DNA of 18,049 bases from UHGV virus genome UHGV-0118719; one strand, given 5' to 3'. The position numbers and the translations under genes are program-made. Origin of the DNA: a virus. The notes beneath the pieces were generated by a model that saw nothing but the letters and a program-made list of their open reading frames with translations, did no database searches and was not told the origin of the DNA. This document shows, in pieces, positions 3,075 to 10,948 of the stretch (positions are counted from its first letter, which is position 1; each line of letters starts with the position of its first letter).

Positions 3075-3376
3075 TATGCCTTCTCCATAAAAACGATCAG
3101 CTCACATTTCGAGGCCGGATAATTACCAAGCCCAGTGTCAGATGCGGACGTCACAGTTATTGAGTTACCTGATGCAACTATTCTTCGCCCTACGCTGTTA
3201 CCTCCTTCATCAAGAGAAACAACAAAACCAACTTTAAAACCTGTGGGCACAGTGAAACTCCAAGAACCTGAGTTCTGACCTGCTGCAAGTGGAATGCGGC
3301 CTACTACCGATACTGGTTTAATGCCATAGTTATTAGGCCTTCCGCTGGCATCCCATGTTTGTATTCCCCATGACAT
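3074..3376 (-). CDS. hypothetical protein (100 aa), first of two coupled post-J ORFs
   Basis: ATG at 3374-3376 overlaps the J stop by 1 nt (TGATG); AGGAG RBS 8 nt upstream, inside the end of J; WDASG motif. Confidence 0.6.
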   Translation of the reverse strand: MSWGIQTWDASGRPNNYGIKPVSVVGRIPLAAGQNSGSWSFTVPTGFKVGFVVSLDEGGNSVGRRIVASGNSITVTSASDTGLGNYPASKCELIVFMEKA

Positions 3377-6300
3377 CAGAATACTCCTGTCAGTTTTCCA
3401 ATCTGTACGCGCAGGACGCCGTTAGCATCCCTTATGCTGTCAGTAACATTCGTTGTCTTTCTTGCGCCCTGCCCGTCACTGCCATAGTTTTCCCAAGTGC
3501 CACCTTTATCCAGTTTCCATCCAGATTGCCCGGCAACGTAATTGTTGGACTGGATAAAGTTACCGATTTTGGCATTGGTGATCGTGCCATCCTGAATAAA
3601 CGCTGAGCTGATAAACACCTGACCGTTTACCACCGCGAACGGCGAATACTGGGTATCACCACTGCCGCTCATCAGCACGAACTGGTTAGCGTTGAAACCA
3701 ACCCGCGTGACTACCGGCTTCCCTGCCTCTGCAAGCACTGCAATAGACATCCCGGCGTTATAAATCACCCCGTTTATTCTCACGCCCGTTTTGAGGGTGT
3801 GGATTGCCGAAGCACCGGAGGCATCTACGACAGCTGTAAGCTTGTCTTCCAGGGAAGCGGTAACATCCTCAATCTGCGCCTGCACCTGCGTCGAAAGTTC
3901 GGCCATTGCATTATCAACTTCAGCAATCGTCGTTTTAACCACCAGAATATCGGCACGCACTTCTCCGTATTGTGCCCACTGGTGCTCAACAGTTCCATGG
4001 TTCGCCAGGGCGTTCTGCAGTATTCCCTCAATGTTGGTATCGATGTCACCAGTCAGGCGTTCTCCGTCTGCAGAGGTTAGGAAATCATCTGCGATATCGC
4101 CCAAATAATCATCGGCGTTATCGTTAGACATCCCCCTGATCCAGTCGGTATACCCGGACTCGTTACCCGTTCTGTCGACCAGCTGCGCGCGGTACCAGAA
4201 TTCCTGCCCTGCTTTAAGGCCGAGCTGGGTGTATTCCGCAGATGGATAAGGCACGTCTGAGAGCAAGAGTGGATCTGAAAAGTCACTGTTGGCAGTGTAC
4301 TGAATTTCCGTTTTTAGCGTATCGCCGGTGTTTGCCGGGAAACCCCAGTTAAGACGAATCCCCCAGTTAATGCCCGTGGCTGTGAATCCTACTGGCTTAG
4401 GCGGATTACCTACTTTGCCGGTCAGTGTCTTCTCTTCTGAATATCCCCATCCTGAGGAAATTTCAGCGGCATTAATTGCGCGCACGCGCACCAGGTAGCG
4501 CCCGGCATAAATCCCCGGGACGTCAAATGACGTGGTGGAGCTGCGAGGCATGTTCACCCAGTTTCCGTCGTTGCGGCGCCACTGCCCCTCATAGGCGATA
4601 GCGTTCTGCGCCTGGTCCCAGCTCACGCGCATCGTTTCGACGCTGATATTCTGCTGAACAACCGAAAACGAACTGATCGTGATGTTGGCTGGCGGGGACT
4701 GATTACCGGGCGGAATTACACTTATTGGCCGCTGGTCGATGATGGCGCCGGTATCGATACGGGCATACTTATCCGGATCGTGAAAAGCACCAGTAATCGA
4801 AAACGTGCCGTCGTTATTATCAGCGACGCTGATAACACGATATTGCTGTGCATAAAGCTCGTCGGATTCGACAATCCATACCGATTCGACTGCCGGTGTT
4901 TCGCTGTATGCCGTGGTCACGGTGACAGCCCGACCGTTTACGCTCTGTATCGTCCTGCTCTGCGATGCGCCAGACGGCAGGTTAACCATAAGACGGCTTC
5001 CGGCAACGGCTGCGGAATCACGATCAAGCGTGATAACGCGACCATTAACCGCGCTGATACGCCCTCCCATCACCTTTCCGGATAACAGATCATCGGCAAC
5101 CGCGATAATATAACCAGGCTGCGGAATGTTTCCGTCCAGCCCGACATCAAACGAAACAACGCGATCCTTGTTATTGGTGAGAATACCCCAGCGCCCCTTT
5201 CGGTTCGCCTCTGACTGCCTGGTGCAGCCGATGGCTGTCATTTCCAGCTGATTGAAGCCGTACCGCGCCACCAGCGCCTGCTCAAATACCGGCTCCATCG
5301 CGTCGGCATAAGCGTTACCCGGGTCTGACCATGAAACCAGCGCTGTGGTGTAGCGGCTTTTCGTGGTGCTGCTCGAATAGGTGAAGCGACCGCCAACAAC
5401 GTTAGCGCGCGTATAGCTGTAATCAACATCGCGCGGCATGTCAGCCAGGGCCACAATCTGATCCCCGCCCCAGTAGGTCATGCCACGGAAGATAGCGGCA
5501 AAATCACGCAGGACTGTGTAGGCGTCGTTCCGGTCCTGAATGTACACGTTGCAGGTATAGCGTGGTTCTGTACCGTTGCCCCCTTTGCCGTCTGGTACCA
5601 TCTGATCACAATACTGAGCAACCTGATAAAGCGTCCATTTATCAATATTCGCAGCGGTCAAACGGTGCCCAAGGCCGAACCGGTCAGAAACAACCAGGTC
5701 GTAAAAAATCCACGCAGGGTTATCCGTCCATGCCCACTTAAACGCACCGGTCCATGTACCGCTATAAGTGCGGGTTTCAGGGTCGTAGGTATCTGGAACG
5801 CGGATAACGCGGCCGCGCGGTTCGCATGAAATTTGAGGAATAGAGCCGTTGAACTGGCTTGAGTCGAATTCGACGTAGAGCAGCGCGGTGTTCGGGTAGC
5901 GCAGTTTGGCGTCAATCACCTCGGTGAAGCTCTGCAGCATCATCGTGTCGCCGATCTTCGCGCTGTTGGCGTCAGAGGTAATCTTACGCAGACGTATTGT
6001 CCATGTGCTGCCAGCCTGCGGTAAATCGATACGGTGGCTGCGCTCATAACCAGACGTCGTTTTGCCGGTCACGCTGGTATTGAGTACCGTCTGCCATGTG
6101 CCGCCGTCAGTCTGCAGGTCAATCGCATAATTGACCGAGTAACCCACCAGATCGCCGTCGTCTTCCTGTTTGAAAAGCGAGGGCCATTTAAGACGCAGGC
6201 GAACTGCTGAAAGCTGCGTATTGGTAAACGTGCGCGTCCAGGCTGTGGCACTTGATACCTCAGTTCCTACGCTGATCTCGTTTTCGGTACCGGGAATACC

Positions 6301-6561
6301 CTGAATATATTTTTGCGCCTGCGTTCCCGCGCGAAACTCCCACGTTACCCCGCTGAAGTTTTGGGAGCCGTCAGCATTCTCCAGCGCTGTTCCGTCCAGG
6401 TAGATATCTTTGCCGGTGAGCTGTCCAGCAAACTCCCCTTCCCCAAGCGCAACGAGGATTTTTGCCTTCGCTACAGATTGCAGATCATCAGGCTGTTCGG
6501 TAGGGGTTCGGGAACTTGAGCTGCCGCCCTTGCGGCCTTTTAACACTTTATCTGTAGCCAT
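3376..6561 (-). CDS. J: tail tip / central tail fibre protein J (host specificity protein)
   Basis: 1061-aa ORF in the lambda J position after I; conserved lambda-J-like blocks in the central region (e.g. YPNTAL, WTLYQVAQYCDQMVPDGKGG..TEPRYTCNVY); N- and C-terminal regions diverge from lambda. Confidence 0.9.
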   Translation of the reverse strand: MATDKVLKGRKGGSSSSRTPTEQPDDLQSVAKAKILVALGEGEFAGQLTGKDIYLDGTALENADGSQNFSGVTWEFRAGTQAQKYIQGIPGTENEISVGTEVSSATAWTRTFTNTQLSAVRLRLKWPSLFKQEDDGDLVGYSVNYAIDLQTDGGTWQTVLNTSVTGKTTSGYERSHRIDLPQAGSTWTIRLRKITSDANSAKIGDTMMLQSFTEVIDAKLRYPNTALLYVEFDSSQFNGSIPQISCEPRGRVIRVPDTYDPETRTYSGTWTGAFKWAWTDNPAWIFYDLVVSDRFGLGHRLTAANIDKWTLYQVAQYCDQMVPDGKGGNGTEPRYTCNVYIQDRNDAYTVLRDFAAIFRGMTYWGGDQIVALADMPRDVDYSYTRANVVGGRFTYSSSTTKSRYTTALVSWSDPGNAYADAMEPVFEQALVARYGFNQLEMTAIGCTRQSEANRKGRWGILTNNKDRVVSFDVGLDGNIPQPGYIIAVADDLLSGKVMGGRISAVNGRVITLDRDSAAVAGSRLMVNLPSGASQSRTIQSVNGRAVTVTTAYSETPAVESVWIVESDELYAQQYRVISVADNNDGTFSITGAFHDPDKYARIDTGAIIDQRPISVIPPGNQSPPANITISSFSVVQQNISVETMRVSWDQAQNAIAYEGQWRRNDGNWVNMPRSSTTSFDVPGIYAGRYLVRVRAINAAEISSGWGYSEEKTLTGKVGNPPKPVGFTATGINWGIRLNWGFPANTGDTLKTEIQYTANSDFSDPLLLSDVPYPSAEYTQLGLKAGQEFWYRAQLVDRTGNESGYTDWIRGMSNDNADDYLGDIADDFLTSADGERLTGDIDTNIEGILQNALANHGTVEHQWAQYGEVRADILVVKTTIAEVDNAMAELSTQVQAQIEDVTASLEDKLTAVVDASGASAIHTLKTGVRINGVIYNAGMSIAVLAEAGKPVVTRVGFNANQFVLMSGSGDTQYSPFAVVNGQVFISSAFIQDGTITNAKIGNFIQSNNYVAGQSGWKLDKGGTWENYGSDGQGARKTTNVTDSIRDANGVLRVQIGKLTGVF

Positions 6562-6571
6562 ATTGCGCCCA

Positions 6572-6595
6572 TAAAAAAGCCACCCAAAGGTGGCT
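6572..6595 (-). terminator. rho-independent terminator on the minus strand, ending about 10 nt upstream of the J start codon
   Basis: Plus-strand A6 then 7-bp stem agccacc (6578-6584) / ggtggct (6589-6595) with loop caaa; on the minus strand this is a hairpin followed by TTTTTTAT. Confidence 0.55.
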
Positions 6596-6726
6596 ACTGT
6601 CTGAATATCAGGATGTTACAAATCTAAATACCTGGTTATGTTGTGGATTCAGCCCGCCAGCGGTGGGACGCTGGTGAACTCATAACAGGTGGAATGGCTG
6701 ATTACCTCTGGAAAAAGGAGAAGTAA

Positions 6727-6987
6727 ATGGGTTCGATGTTAGAACTGGAAAAAGAAGTGGCAGAGCTTAAACAAAAGCTGCTTACGCATGAAATTGCAAC
6801 TGGCCTGATTCTATCGGACATTGTGAAATTACTGGACATTGCCCGGCCAGGCGCACTCGATGCTCTGACTAAAAACTATCAGGCAGGGCAAGCAAAAATC
6901 CCAGAATCAGCTGCACGTAATGATCCGCACACAATTGATGCGTTCACGCGCATCCTTAAAGTTTTAGAGGTGGCATCAAAGAAATAA
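6727..6987 (+). CDS. hypothetical small protein (86 aa) on the opposite strand to the tail operon; coiled-coil-like N-terminus
   Basis: AGGAG RBS (6716-6720) 6 nt before the ATG at 6727; AT-rich compared with flanking tail genes; 3' end overlaps the convergent minus-strand ORF by 32 bp. Confidence 0.5.
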   Translation: MGSMLELEKEVAELKQKLLTHEIATGLILSDIVKLLDIARPGALDALTKNYQAGQAKIPESAARNDPHTIDAFTRILKVLEVASKK

Positions 6988-7273
6988 TTAAATCGAGCTT
7001 TTCATTGAATATTTCTTCATGAGTTTTAGCGGCCTCATTCTGGGCCGCTGTTACCGTTCCACCGAAAACCCCTGCATCACCCTGCGAAATCTTTCCCTCC
7101 TTTACTCGCAAACTCCAGCCATTACCGGTGATGGTCGAATGAATAGCGCCACCTGGCCGTAGTGCGTTCTGAATGGCGGAATTGACGATTGCCGGGTTAT
7201 GCAGCTCTGCTATCTCCACCTGCAGGCTCGCGATGGTTGCCTCAAGCATGCTCATGCGCTCTTCTAAAGTCAT
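6956..7273 (-). CDS. hypothetical small protein (105 aa from the ATG at 7271-7273) between I and J
   Basis: AGGAG RBS 7 nt upstream of the ATG at 7273; the longer track ORF (to 7375) would overlap I and lacks an RBS; coiled-coil-like N-terminus. Confidence 0.5.
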   Translation of the reverse strand: MTLEERMSMLEATIASLQVEIAELHNPAIVNSAIQNALRPGGAIHSTITGNGWSLRVKEGKISQGDAGVFGGTVTAAQNEAAKTHEEIFNEKLDLIISLMPPLKL

Positions 7274-7310
7274 AGTTTTCTCCTGCCTATCAGCTAATAA
7301 GTTAATTAAT

Positions 7311-7901
7311 TTACTGTTGATCTTCGACATAAATTCCGGCAGAAATAATCGCTCCGCCGATTCGACGCTTACCATAAAGCAGAGGCACCGGGTACCCCTG
7401 TGCCGCGGTGTTTGTTACACCACCGAACGCGTATGAGGCGCGGTTATCTGAACTCTGTTTGCTGGCCAGCCCCGCTGGTTGAGGGGAAAGCATCTGAACA
7501 ACCCCGCCAATCATCATTGCGGCACCGAATTTGTATAAGAATGGTGATGCCGCAGCCCAGGGTGTGAAATTAAGCACCGCCCCAACGGCAACCAGAACTG
7601 CACCAAGTATTGTCTGGAGTAATCCGGCCTTTTTGCTCCCGATAATCACCGGGACAATCCTGACCACTTCACCAGTTACCGGAAAACCTAGGTCATCAAC
7701 TCCTATGTTTTTCTTTCCTTTAAAAATGGCAAAGGTTAGTCCGCGGCGCTTGCTGTTTACCATATAACTTTCAAACCCGGTGATTGTTTTTGCGAGTGCT
7801 ACACCTGCTTCAGAAACTTTACTGATAAGTCGCCAATGAGTTTTACCAAATATTTTACCGGGTTCGCCGCCGAGCTCAATTCGAGTCATTGCTTCAGACA
7901 T
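7311..7901 (-). CDS. I: tail assembly protein I
   Basis: 196-aa ORF; AAGAGG RBS 5 nt upstream; C-terminal half resembles lambda gpI (Gly/Ala-rich hydrophobic segment, then VLPVLYG-like block, here YPVPLLYGKRRIG). Confidence 0.85.
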   Translation of the reverse strand: MSEAMTRIELGGEPGKIFGKTHWRLISKVSEAGVALAKTITGFESYMVNSKRRGLTFAIFKGKKNIGVDDLGFPVTGEVVRIVPVIIGSKKAGLLQTILGAVLVAVGAVLNFTPWAAASPFLYKFGAAMMIGGVVQMLSPQPAGLASKQSSDNRASYAFGGVTNTAAQGYPVPLLYGKRRIGGAIISAGIYVEDQQ

Positions 7902-7914
7902 ATAAACCTCTTAA

Positions 7915-7940
7915 TAATAAAAAACCCCGCCTGAGCGAGG
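7915..7940 (-). terminator. rho-independent terminator between the lipoprotein gene and I
   Basis: Plus-strand A-run 7919-7924 then ccccgc-ctga-gcgagg; on the minus-strand RNA the stem is fully paired (one G-U) and followed by a U-tract, while the plus-strand version has a C-A mismatch. Confidence 0.55.
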
Positions 7941-7959
7941 TTATATATAATTGCTGCAT

Positions 7960-8373
7960 TCAAAATGCTGTAGGGTAGATACCAAAATCACCGTTGGTTC
8001 CGTAACCAACTCTAAACATCAAAACCCCAGTATCTGTCACCTTACCCGACTGTTCGCTCATGCCTCCGCCACACATACCTTTGGGCCAAGCGCTAAAGAT
8101 ATGATCTCCAATTTTGGGATAGACCGTTACCTTTTGAGCTGTATCTAAGTCTGCGACCTCCTTGCCATCAACATAAACTCGGGTCATGCAGGCGCTGCCC
8201 ATAAAACCAGAGTCTCGTTTGATTATTACCTTGCCAGTCCCTTCTTTTTTTACTAGCAGTGTATTGCTGATAACCTGTTTTGCAGGAACATCCTGTGCTT
8301 GTTCATTTGTCACCGGCTTAGTTGCACAACCGGCAACCATTAAGATGGAGGTAAAAACTAAAATTCTTTTCAT
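7960..8373 (-). CDS. lipoprotein of unknown function (137 aa), accessory gene between K and I
   Basis: ATG at 8371-8373 preceded by AAAGGGGA; signal peptide MKRILVFTSILMVAGC with lipobox VAGC; the longer track ORF start at 8493 was rejected. Confidence 0.65.
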   Translation of the reverse strand: MKRILVFTSILMVAGCATKPVTNEQAQDVPAKQVISNTLLVKKEGTGKVIIKRDSGFMGSACMTRVYVDGKEVADLDTAQKVTVYPKIGDHIFSAWPKGMCGGGMSEQSGKVTDTGVLMFRVGYGTNGDFGIYPTAF

Positions 8374-8461
8374 ATCCCTATCCCCTTTGGTCAATTTTGC
8401 CAAAAGAGTAGCAGGGATCGAGCGGTAGCAAAACCGAATGTTATCTTGGTTCACGCGCCCT

Positions 8462-8971
8462 TTAAATACCGGGGAGATACATCTGTACTTCATCAGCTAC
8501 ACGCTCCCGTGCTGTGTGTAGAAGCCGCTTGCGGCCACCAACACCCCACTTGGCCATCTGGCTGGCGCACTGGCTGATCGCTTTGGTTTCGGTGTTAATC
8601 ACATGGTCGATTTTATTCAAGCGAGACATGGCATCGAACCCGCGACGCATTAGCATTTGAAATGTCTCATAGACTTTGATTTCAAAAAGCGGATTGAGCC
8701 AGGCTGCATAGCGTATAGCGATAAGTTCAAGCCCCCAGGAGCCCTGAAATGGTCCCCCCTTAATTGTCATAACCGATGCGATTTTCTTCGCATCGCTCAA
8801 GGCTTGAACAAATCGCCTTACTTGCTTGGTTTTGAGAAACTCACCTGGTCGCTGTGATTCAGTGGCTTTGCCTTCAGCCACCGCTGCGGCGTGGAGATCA
8901 TTAAGATTATAACGTCCTTCGTTATCGACACGAACTGATACGCCGTTTACAGATACGGTTGGATATTGCAT
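8462..8971 (-). CDS. KilA-N domain protein (169 aa)
   Basis: N-terminal ~110 aa fit the KilA-N/APSES-type pattern (V..VR.D.EG...L.DL......, GG.FQGSWG.ELIAIRYAAWLNP.FEIKVYE); ATG at 8969-8971 with AAGG RBS; inserted where lambda has no gene. Confidence 0.65.
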   Translation of the reverse strand: MQYPTVSVNGVSVRVDNEGRYNLNDLHAAAVAEGKATESQRPGEFLKTKQVRRFVQALSDAKKIASVMTIKGGPFQGSWGLELIAIRYAAWLNPLFEIKVYETFQMLMRRGFDAMSRLNKIDHVINTETKAISQCASQMAKWGVGGRKRLLHTARERVADEVQMYLPGI

Positions 8972-9115
8972 ATCGGATTACCTTTTAGTGATGAACCTTG
9001 TCGCACAGGAAAACGGCCCCAAGAAGGCTCCGACAGCCAGCCGGTTCCTCAAGGTGCATCCTGAAAGGTTCTTGGTTTGAATTGCGCGTGCGGTGCGCGG
9101 TGAAATGCGGGGTTT

Positions 9116-9136
9116 AAAAAAACCCACCTGAGTGGG
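9116..9136 (-). terminator. rho-independent terminator directly after the K stop codon
   Basis: cccac-ctga-gtggg hairpin (9123-9136) abutting the K stop (9137-9139), followed on the minus strand by T7 (plus-strand A-run 9116-9122). Confidence 0.55.
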
Positions 9137-9847
9137 CTATAGAAGCGTTTTATATCTGACGATCTTCATCGTCCTTTCCTGCCAGTAGCCACCATACGGC
9201 ACGCGCTGGCTCAGATGTCCGTACAGGTGGTGCAGCAGCATATTTCCCTCCAGCAGAATTCCCGCGTGGTTCCACTTATCAGCCTGGACCTGCATGATCA
9301 CCATATCGCCGGGTTTCGGTGGCCCGTCGAATTCCCGGAAACCGCACTCATACCAGCAATCCTGATAGAAGTTGTCCGGATATTCGTTTTCCCACCAGGG
9401 ATAATCAACCCGGTAATCGTGGAGTTCGATACCATGCGTTTGCCGAAAATAGCTCATTACCAGCCCCCAGCAGTCGAAGTGTCCAAGCACAAACGGACGC
9501 TCCAGCAGCGGCAGTTCTCCGCGCGGCTGGATGGTGCGTAAATCCCCCTCCGGCCAGCTCACAATATGCCAGGGTAAAAGCGTTGCGTCGCATTGCGCTT
9601 TATCCAGTTCGCTCGGTTGCGTTGTGGCGTCAGGGTGACTGTGAACGATGGCGATCACCGTACCCCAGTCCTCAGCAGCGGCATAGCCTTCTGGCGACAG
9701 GTGAAAATGTTCTGTCGGCTCGGTAGCGAGGTTACTACATGGAAAATATTTCTCTACCCGGCTCTTTTGCGCCACCACGCCGCAACACTCACGAGGATAT
9801 TCAGCTGCAGCATGCGCCATAATCGCATCGATGGTTTTCTGACGCAT
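9137..9847 (-). CDS. K: tail assembly protein K (N-terminal MPN/JAMM-like, C-terminal NlpC/P60-like)
   Basis: 236-aa ORF that matches my recollection of lambda gpK over essentially its whole length (MRQ.TIDAIMAHAAAEYPRE.CGVV..., HSHPD motif, HFDCWGLV). Confidence 0.95.
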   Translation of the reverse strand: MRQKTIDAIMAHAAAEYPRECCGVVAQKSRVEKYFPCSNLATEPTEHFHLSPEGYAAAEDWGTVIAIVHSHPDATTQPSELDKAQCDATLLPWHIVSWPEGDLRTIQPRGELPLLERPFVLGHFDCWGLVMSYFRQTHGIELHDYRVDYPWWENEYPDNFYQDCWYECGFREFDGPPKPGDMVIMQVQADKWNHAGILLEGNMLLHHLYGHLSQRVPYGGYWQERTMKIVRYKTLL

Positions 9848-9848
9848 A

Positions 9849-10604
9849 TCAGCTCCTGATCAACGACGTTCCAACGAATCCGCCATGCGATAACTCATTA
9901 CCTTTGCCAAAACGTAGCTCACATGCTGCCAACGTACCGTTGCATTCATCCAGCGACGGATCGCTTACCGGGTTGTTGTTTTTGTCGAAATAGCGCGTAC
10001 CAGCATAGTCGCAGCCGTCGCCGGTTCGGTACTTGTTCCGGATGCACCATGTGCACAGAGAATGAAGCTGGCGGGTAGGTATCATCAGCCCCTGCAGATC
10101 CATAGGGCTGGATAGTGTGAACTCAACAACTTCATTGGTTTCACTGCTCTTTGCATCGATGTAGAAAACCTTCAGCTTCTCCTGGGTCGGATCGGCTGTC
10201 GGATTGCCTCCGGTGAAGTTTCTCGCATCGAGATACTTACCAATGGTGTCATGTATCGTCACCTTCGCCTGCAGCATATCGTCGTAAGCCAGGCAAAGCG
10301 CGGTGATCGAACTGTCGAGGTTAGCAACCGAAAGTTTTGGCTGGGCACTACTTCCCGAGGTTGAAGCCTCGATCCCCTCAATCTGACACGGCCAGGCTTT
10401 ATACTCCTCCCCCTGCCACCAGATGGACTTCGCCGGAAGTTTATTCTCATCCCCGCCTGCAGCCTCAATCTCTTCCGGGGTATGCGCGATATTATGTGTG
10501 TGGAAGCGGAGTACATCTGACATACCGAACGCTGTGCCATCGACAGAAAAAAGCCGGACTTCATTGCCCGGCTCGAGTTTTTGATAATCAGCATTAAGAC
10601 TCAT
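9849..10604 (-). CDS. L: minor tail protein L
   Basis: 251-aa ORF in the lambda L position; conserved Cys-containing C-terminal region (CTWC, GCDY, DEC); ATGA start/stop overlap with M. Confidence 0.9.
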   Translation of the reverse strand: MSLNADYQKLEPGNEVRLFSVDGTAFGMSDVLRFHTHNIAHTPEEIEAAGGDENKLPAKSIWWQGEEYKAWPCQIEGIEASTSGSSAQPKLSVANLDSSITALCLAYDDMLQAKVTIHDTIGKYLDARNFTGGNPTADPTQEKLKVFYIDAKSSETNEVVEFTLSSPMDLQGLMIPTRQLHSLCTWCIRNKYRTGDGCDYAGTRYFDKNNNPVSDPSLDECNGTLAACELRFGKGNELSHGGFVGTSLIRS

Positions 10605-10948
10605 GGTGCAAATGCCTGTTCAAACGTTGCGGTTACGGTTATCACTTTTACGTTTTTAACCACCTTTTTGAGCGTGTCAGCCTCGACACGCCACAGCGCG
10701 GTATCGCCGAAAGGCGGTGTGAAAATAAACGACTTCACTTTATGCCGCCGAAGGAAAGCGTGAATTTCATTCGCTGTAGTCGGATCCCCTGAAAAGGAAT
10801 ATTCATAGGTACGAATCTCATCATTCAGGCCGGAGCCGCTCACCTGTGCGTACCCGTCGCCGAACTGGACCTTCCTGACTGTGTCTTTGCTTCCCTCGGT
10901 GGGCTGGCTGGAAACCTTAATGCCCCAGGGGAATGTTTCTATCGTCAT
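10601..10948 (-). CDS. M: minor tail protein M
   Basis: 115-aa ORF directly after H; lambda-M-like (VRKV.FGDGY.Q); coupled to L. Confidence 0.9.
   Translation of the reverse strand: MTIETFPWGIKVSSQPTEGSKDTVRKVQFGDGYAQVSGSGLNDEIRTYEYSFSGDPTTANEIHAFLRRHKVKSFIFTPPFGDTALWRVEADTLKKVVKNVKVITVTATFEQAFAP

Follow-up and report, generated by a model that had tools for sequence, protein, structure and literature searches.

Antirepressor genes under RNA control are known from phages P1 (c4/icd-ant) and P22 (sar/ant), and in P1 and P7 c4 is associated with immunity specificity. Tail operons, for their part, may carry morons such as HK97 gp15, which blocks DNA entry. Here we analyze an insert between tail genes K and I of the virus genome UHGV-0118719 (18,049 nt; the whole stretch is referred to as the window). 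The insert carries one gene for a KilA-N-domain protein and one for a lipoprotein. We consider it probable, at roughly 60%, that it consists of two unrelated accessory modules, stacked at a site where lambda/HK97-type tail operons repeatedly take up insertions, and is not a two-gene system. The arrangement as such is ordinary phage mosaicism: two known, functionally uncharacterised sequence families at a known moron slot. It gives no reason to look for a defence pair made of KilA-N and lipoprotein. A preliminary description of the window had treated the pair as one cassette and knew of no precedent for it; a K–I lipoprotein is annotated in phage mEp390 and has been published for Pseudomonas phage AH14a, where a Cor-like role was proposed for this homologue (PMC4936722).

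Contents and distribution of the K–I insert

The minus strand of the window carries the head and tail genes of a lambda-type operon, and the insert occupies positions 7902–9136 of that strand. The preliminary description placed an insert of ∼1.2 kb here, and the interval from the K stop to the I start (1235 bp) matches these coordinates exactly. A scan for hairpins followed by T-runs also agreed with its claim that the insert is co-oriented with the tail operon and has terminators at both ends. The features are as follows.

9137–9847, minus strand: gene K, upstream slot boundary (Pfam Prok-JAB and NlpC/P60; phrog_30)
9114–9138 (hairpin 9138–9121), minus strand: terminator-like hairpin AGCCCAC-TCAG-GTGGGTT with a T7 run, directly after the K stop (terminator scan)
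8972–9102, minus strand: structured leader RNA of the KilA-N gene (covariance model R1)
8462–8971, minus strand: KilA-N protein, 169 aa, with an ORF11CD3-like C-terminal tail of ∼60 aa (PF04383; phrog_129)
8374–8461, minus strand: spacer without a terminator between the KilA-N and lipoprotein genes
7960–8373, minus strand: lipoprotein precursor, 137 aa (lipobox VAGC, Cys16; phrog_890)
7915–7942 (hairpin 7942–7923), minus strand: terminator-like hairpin AACCTCGC-TCAG-GCGGGGTT with a T-run, 13 nt ahead of the I start (terminator scan)
7311–7901, minus strand: tail assembly gene I, downstream slot boundary (phrog_32, E = 1.9e-69)

Module A (9138–8462) would be a portable unit of terminator, ∼130-nt leader RNA and cargo gene, and module B (8425–7915) would be an exported lipoprotein gene followed by a terminator. 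Terminator-like sites were enriched in the 3-kb region (11 vs. 3.3 ± 1.7 in shuffles), and equivalent terminators follow the lipoprotein gene in mEp390 and in contigs L006 and L007. Approximately the last 50 nt of the spacer (CTTTTGGCAAAATTGACCAAAGGGGATAGGGAT-ATG) belong to the lipoprotein slot as its conserved 5′ flank and ribosome-binding region and are 84% identical to the flank in mEp390. Two features expected of a moron are present, namely, extra genes between genes that are adjacent in related phages (the order K–lipoprotein–I without KilA-N and the variable contents of the junction) and terminators of their own (the hairpins with T-runs at 9138–9121 and 7942–7923). A third, a promoter of its own, was not seen: a crude scan found no sigma-70-like promoter between 9120 and 7960, ahead of either gene. 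In the whole 3-kb region, the same scan returned one promoter-like site (3.4 expected), located inside gene I.

The insert had previously been interpreted as a possible co-travelling defence, exclusion or lysogenic-conversion cassette, which, like a classical moron, would be active in the repressed prophage. The two genes are indeed neighbours in the same orientation, terminators lie outside both and none separates them, and the same pair recurs elsewhere. Among 5426 complete Escherichia coli genomes, an identical insert was found in one (NZ_LR536431, whose annotation reads "KilA-N domain-containing protein" and "hypothetical protein"); the pair was further found in Pseudocitrobacter faecalis DSM 27453 (99% DNA identity) and in two viral contigs, L066 and L094. 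Against a single cassette, either gene is far commoner without the other. In P22-like phages, including ST104, SE1, ST64B and UPF_BP1, KilA-N homologues (68%–75% identity) occupy the Rz–terminase interval, and no lipoprotein gene accompanies them. The lipoprotein gene stands alone between K and I in mEp390, phage Fostie and L007, and the order K–lipoprotein–I without KilA-N was seen in all eight Klebsiella contexts examined for P0029, a 74%-identical homologue indexed in 1326 blocks of the collection. On these comparisons, the lipoprotein (PHROG 890) alone is the usual K–I occupant, from Klebsiella to Pseudomonas.

Other arrangements are more diverse. In L006 the lipoprotein gene is preceded by a different small open reading frame (ORF) in reverse orientation, and in AH14a the order is K, a 210-aa protein without a Pfam match, a homologous lipoprotein (33% identity to that of the window, E = 1e-17) and I. 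The gene sits between the tape-measure gene and M in HK639 and in an Enterobacter hormaechei prophage, 15 nt downstream of a cI-like repressor gene on the same strand in Vibrio anguillarum phage P2, and outside any tail module in a Klebsiella phage-plasmid.

Two contigs bear directly on whether the genes form a unit. L083 (IMG/VR contig 2519899729_000005) has an identical KilA-N gene at K–I, followed by an unrelated lipoprotein of 113 aa (phrog_914; L083 2335–2796) whose gene shares the 5′ flank of PHROG 890 genes and encodes an almost identical signal peptide. It would seem that mature lipoprotein domains are swapped at K–I, with the 5′ flank and signal peptide kept constant. The L066 counterparts of the window genes have diverged unequally, with 88% identity for KilA-N and 100% for the lipoprotein, which points to recombination between the two genes. 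The HK97 K–I junction is itself not empty, holding a small ORF and a terminator, and the I–J genes there are annotated "moron" and "reverse moron." By this evidence, K–I is a known insertion site, and its contents are interchangeable because HK97, L083, mEp390, L006 and others carry different genes at the junction. Given the independent occurrence of the genes, the substitution in L083, the unequal divergence in L066 and a scan that found no promoter-like site from the K terminator to either gene, we find the single cassette hardly credible; the sequence lends no support to expression from the repressed prophage.

A leader RNA ahead of the KilA-N gene

The 130 nt from the K terminator to the KilA-N start are far more conserved than the genes behind them and contain a structured leader RNA, overlooked in the preliminary description. 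Its elements are listed below.

9098–9095 with 9087–9084, minus strand: hairpin P1
9068–9042 with 9010–8981, minus strand: long imperfect helix
9093–9088 with 9006–9001, minus strand: pseudoknot b, between the P1 loop and a bulge on the 3′ side of the long helix
9075–9071 with 9023–9019, minus strand: pseudoknot c, five bases just 5′ of the long helix with the apical loop
8986–8981, minus strand: Shine-Dalgarno sequence AAAAGG, inside the long helix

A small apical hairpin is also present. The strands of the long helix are CCUUUCAGGAUGC-CCUUG-AGGA (9068–9046) and UCCU...CAAGG-UCAUC-CU-AAAGG (9010–8981); the Shine-Dalgarno sequence pairs with an upstream CCUUU, so the ribosome-binding site is buried.

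Pairing was evaluated over 85 distinct sequences. Paired bases filled 97.6% of the cells, and 28 of 40 pairs had changed on both sides, values of covariation that none of 500 shuffles reached; structures slid by one to three columns gave only five to 10 such pairs. The pseudoknots, although outside the model that made the alignment, covary most strongly. Pair 13/179 of pseudoknot b occurs as GC (39 sequences), AU (28) and UA (12). For pseudoknot c, 79 of 83 distinct sequences show full complementarity, with the variants CACAG/CUGUG, CCAAG/CUUGG, CUCAG/CUGAG, CAAAG/CUUUG, CACCG/CGGUG and CGCAG/CUGCG. Within the core group, the nested helices are near-invariant (mean entropy 0.07 bit), and the pseudoknot helices vary like linkers (0.40–0.45 bit, with 1.4–1.6 bit at central positions) while remaining complementary. 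RNAalifold reported only invariant pairs until divergent copies were added; these copies have compensated changes in the long helix (GAAAUGAG/CUCAUUUC, GAGCC/GGCUC, CCCUG/CAGGG). An alternative helix, GAACCUU with AAGGUUC, was dropped, as variants such as GAGCC/GGCUC compensate in the long-helix register.

Could the 130 nt instead be a control region at the DNA level (operators as inverted repeats, or a promoter), or encode a leader peptide from an internal ATG? Inverted repeats in DNA covary like RNA helices, many leader copies have an ATG-initiated ORF of 24–27 codons, and the P22 annotation starts rha inside the leader region; literature cited in PMC4936722 has IHF, a DNA-binding protein, regulating rha. 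Yet G-U pairs are tolerated (pair 37/157 is GU in 15 sequences, pair 79/150 in 25), and these are compatible with the sense strand only, being A-C mismatches on the opposite strand. Operators would hardly account for five interleaved helices, two of them pseudoknots, and the leader always stops at the start codon, its Shine-Dalgarno sequence lying within a helix. The peptide was rejected, since the internal ORF ranges from three to more than 33 codons and changes frame. We regard these explanations as highly improbable. The compensated pairs and the fixed position at the start codon strongly support, as structure, a conserved and putatively cis-regulatory RNA.

We found the leader in 307 phage records by BLAST and in at least 120 viral contigs by pattern scan. 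It is present in 880 of the 5426 E. coli genomes (median of three and up to 10 copies per genome; five to seven copies in O157:H7 strains), and no RNA is annotated at the listed leader matches in these genomes. A covariance model (R1), built from 32 copies, scores the window leader at 145 bits over 8962–9102 and also detects divergent second copies in several phages. None of the families in Rfam 15, including C4 antisense RNA, IsrK and known ribozymes and riboswitches, matched anywhere in the window at the gathering score; at E ≤ 1 there was no match over 6400–9400 and only a chance Trp-leader hit elsewhere. The sequence holds no hint of a ligand. Literature searches found no published description of the leader.

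R1 also finds the leader ahead of P22 rha (57 bits; L145, NC_002371, 39504–39655). The annotated rha start (39575) falls within the structured leader; judged by analogy with all other copies, the true start is probably the ATG near 39643, which would make the 201-codon annotation ∼23 codons too long.

Copies of the leader always end at the start codon of a cargo gene, and the cargo differs. Carriers include 933W "ant" (between R and Rz), a 251-aa KilA-N + P63C protein in the tail module of Klebsiella phages, the HNH endonuclease of phages Dewey and ECP1, and KilA-N genes located after Rz. A census of 107 leader copies gave the following cargo.

KilA-N + ORF11CD3: 38 copies
KilA-N + P63C: 18 copies
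Rha + ORF11CD3: 14 copies
HNH: 11 copies
P22_AR_N + ORF11CD3: 11 copies
Rha: four copies
AntA: three copies
TerB: two copies

Of 83 distinct flanks, 75 contain a terminator-like hairpin in the 75 nt that precede the leader, usually 10–25 nt ahead of hairpin P1. This spacing leaves no promoter room, and the portable unit would thus be terminator, leader and cargo.

In both ECP1 (L021, 2497–3187) and Dewey (L017, 2501–3690) the HNH endonuclease gene directly follows the leader; in Dewey it separates the leader from a KilA-N-type regulator, an arrangement that resembles insertion of a free-standing endonuclease gene into the module. Several genomes have two leader copies ahead of different cargo: ECP1 (L021, 892–1045 and 2497–2638), L026, L029, L034, L052, L059 and L065. 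Co-resident copies differ in at least one pseudoknot specificity in all five pairs compared, a small sample.

The KilA-N protein

The KilA-N assignment made earlier was confirmed by a hidden Markov model search: Pfam KilA-N (PF04383) matches residues 9–109 (E = 2.6e-15; 56.6 bits vs. a cutoff of 23.8), and the alignment covers profile positions 6–106 of 107. The 169-aa protein also matches phrog_129 (E = 8.5e-55). Neither insert protein has a hit in NCBIfam or a match among solved structures searched by sequence, and PADLOC gave no match to the lipoprotein. The suggested link to antirepressor or Bro-type proteins has grown stronger, with a leader common to 933W ant and P22 rha and a C terminus with moderate resemblance to ORF11CD3 tails. 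The protein would accordingly fall in the class of P22/phi80 Rha and 933W "Ant," and the best-supported reading, drawn from family and context, is an antirepressor-like or Rha-like regulator made in lytic growth.

The preliminary description had also raised BstA, in which case the protein would be a prophage-expressed abortive-infection factor. It resembles BstA in its N-terminal KilA-N domain and in being prophage-borne. BstA membership was nonetheless rejected: the PADLOC defence models returned only PDC-S22, an unrelated candidate, at 15 bits, and only ∼60 aa follow the KilA-N domain. Moreover, the relatives and the leader of the gene belong to the late-operon rha/ant slot, and the upstream terminator and buried ribosome-binding site weigh against steady expression in the lysogen. 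We give a BstA-type function very little credence.

The lipoprotein

The second gene encodes, as first described, a 137-aa lipoprotein with the lipobox VAGC. It begins MKRILVFTSILMVAGC and matches phrog_890 "lipoprotein" (E = 2.1e-51); Cys16 of the lipobox, Cys62 and Cys101 are invariant in 35 homologues. LPAM_1 gave a weak match only. Residue +2 in MKRILVFTSILMVAGC-AT is Ala, not Asp, which fits the outer-membrane sorting rule, and Cys62 and Cys101 would fit an exported, disulfide-bonded protein. AlphaFold2 confidently predicts a beta-sandwich (mean predicted local distance difference test, pLDDT, of 89.7). The family has more than 100 cluster representatives, from Enterobacterales, Vibrio and environmental contigs; all are unnamed, and no Pfam domain was found in them.

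The prophage tail region has two different small lipoproteins. A true cor gene lies downstream of J at 2052–2291 on the minus strand (NCBIfam NF047972, E = 1e-38), and the K–I lipoprotein does not match this model; on that comparison it is not Cor.

We propose that the lipoprotein acts as a binding protein in the cell envelope. Its most likely role would be superinfection exclusion in the style of Cor and Llp, or protection of progeny against phages of the same tail type, and because the prophage already carries a true cor, its target would be other than FhuA. A role in exclusion or in blocking entry is suggested by the tail-tip position kept across distant hosts, the domain swapping and the adjacency to cI in Vibrio.

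Some of the same observations could fit lysogenic conversion by a Bor-like factor, one that helps the host (for example, in serum resistance, adhesion or tolerance of envelope stress) and does not exclude phages. Lipoproteins of this family, which are of the outer-membrane type, are found on prophages of Klebsiella, Citrobacter, Yersinia, Enterobacter and Vibrio anguillarum; in the Vibrio phage its gene directly follows cI; and the prophage already has Cor for exclusion. Searches of Pfam and NCBIfam, on the other hand, found no similarity to Bor or any other named family. In hosts as far apart as enterobacteria and Pseudomonas the gene keeps its place in the tail-tip module, a pattern typical of genes that block receptors or entry and lie beside host-range genes, and the swapping of mature domains behind a shared signal peptide suggests an arms race. 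We judge the Bor-like role unlikely, though a serious rival, and prefer exclusion. PHROG 890 is very common and wholly uncharacterised, and with its constant tail-tip position, from Klebsiella to Pseudomonas, it is a promising candidate for a new protein of exclusion or entry blocking in hosts of clinical importance.

How the modules may work

In module A, the upstream terminator would block ordinary transcription, and Q-antiterminated late transcription would read through it. The leader would act in cis, keeping translation off by default, until some trigger opens the helix and allows translation; candidates are RNase III cleavage and a trans-acting RNA or protein. With the terminator and the buried Shine-Dalgarno sequence in place, the protein would be made only from Q-antiterminated late transcripts after the trigger and would then act as an antirepressor-like or Rha-like regulator in lytic growth. 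Leader and terminator together are plausible as a way to keep a potentially harmful regulator silent. Action of the leader in trans would be conjecture.

The concentration of compensated change in the pseudoknots suggests that they are specificity determinants. Tentatively, and with the odds leaning against us, we suggest that the leader could represent an undescribed class of double-pseudoknotted RNA that gates Rha, KilA-N and Ant genes in the late operons of lambdoid and P22-like phages, and whose pseudoknots keep the locks of co-resident prophages orthogonal. Rha is reported to block phage growth in IHF-deficient hosts, and IHF to "regulate the rha gene," in older literature as summarised in PMC4936722; if our suggestion is true, the leader could supply the mechanism behind rha deregulation in such hosts. 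A paper on Phi24B ant (PMC3064807) was set aside as evidence, as it may concern a different ant gene. The leader, carried by P22, 933W and roughly a sixth of complete E. coli genomes, is absent from Rfam and genome annotation. It may offer an experimental handle on the silencing of antirepressor-class genes and possibly on crosstalk between Shiga toxin (Stx) prophages.

Several results weigh against this account of two stacked modules and their working. Folded as a single sequence, the window leader has an ordinary minimum free energy (z = −1.66). The pattern used for retrieval prescribed 20 bases in the 5′ strand of the long helix, so the invariance of that strand in the core group is partly by construction; the compensated changes in the long helix stem from few divergent copies, and the nested helices, but not the pseudoknots, guided the fit of the covariation alignment. 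The similarity of the KilA-N tail to the ORF11CD3-bearing tails of Rha/Ant-type proteins is moderate (hhalign probability 83.6%, E = 8e-6); Pfam makes no ORF11CD3 call in the protein even at E ≤ 10, and BLASTP of the tail against an ORF11CD3 protein returned nothing. Fold searches with the lipoprotein gave generic beta-sandwich matches only. The timing of expression is deduced solely from architecture, and the crude scan placed no promoter ahead of either gene. For the lipoprotein, the position in Vibrio beside cI points to expression in the lysogen, and in Klebsiella and mEp390 the gene begins 27–41 nt after K and has no space for a promoter, an arrangement that favours late expression; the two pictures disagree.

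Gene order around the insert

The remainder of the tail region shows the following genes and a second small insertion, at the I–J junction (6562–7375), with two small ORFs.

10601–10948, minus strand: tail gene M
9849–10604, minus strand: tail gene L
6956–7375, minus strand: 139-aa ORF overlapping the end of I (phrog_22477, function not annotated)
6727–6987, plus strand: 86-aa ORF on the opposite strand (phrog_23209)
6595–6578: terminator-like hairpin just ahead of J
3376–6561, minus strand: J, which follows the second small insertion downstream of I

The layout of the I–J insertion mirrors that of HK97 gp22 ("moron") and gp23 ("reverse moron"), with proteins that are not homologous. The same pair of ORFs (139 aa and 86 aa) is present in L001 and L083 and absent in L005.

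The window is distinct from NZ_LR536431, the E. coli genome with the identical insert. K, L and M of the window are >99% identical to those of NZ_LR536431, and the 1061-aa J is only 75% identical to the 1151-aa J of that genome (window 3376–6561 vs. L001 22640–26095). Judged by these identities, the tail-tip and host-range part downstream of the insert is exchanged relative to NZ_LR536431.

Comparison with known systems

The closest parallels to module A are found in late operons. P22/phi80 rha occupies an accessory slot of the late operon; the P22 gene has the same leader (57 bits), and the Rha domain is a cargo type that shares the ORF11CD3 tail. It differs from the window gene in its N-terminal domain (Rha rather than KilA-N) and its site (Rz–terminase rather than K–I in the tail operon). 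The "ant" gene of the Stx phages 933W and Sakai is likewise a small antirepressor-like module within the late operon, with a leader 83% identical to ours that ends at the start codon; its N-terminal domain (P22_AR_N, with ORF11CD3) and its insertion site between R and Rz are different.

P1 c4/icd-ant and P22 sar/ant resemble the proposed module in that an antirepressor-class gene is gated at the ribosome-binding site by RNA pairing. The short complementary segments of the leader, which vary and stay complementary, are reminiscent of the immunity-specificity determinants of P1 and P7. Unlike these systems, the window leader matches no Rfam family, including C4, and all pairing partners lie in one leader; a crude scan of the window region found no antisense promoter. 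BstA shares with the KilA-N protein an N-terminal KilA-N domain and a place on prophages, whereas the window protein is much shorter, has a different C-terminal region, lies in a late-operon context and has no defence-model hit.

For module B, Cor (phi80, N15, HK022) and T5 Llp are comparable as small phage lipoproteins encoded beside host-range or tail-tip genes. They are set apart from the K–I lipoprotein by its failure to match the Cor model and by the separate true cor at 2052–2291. The insert as a whole is most like the morons of HK97, which has extra genes and terminators at both K–I and I–J (gp22 "moron," gp23 "reverse moron"); the proteins are unrelated, and no promoter-like sequence was found in the window insert.

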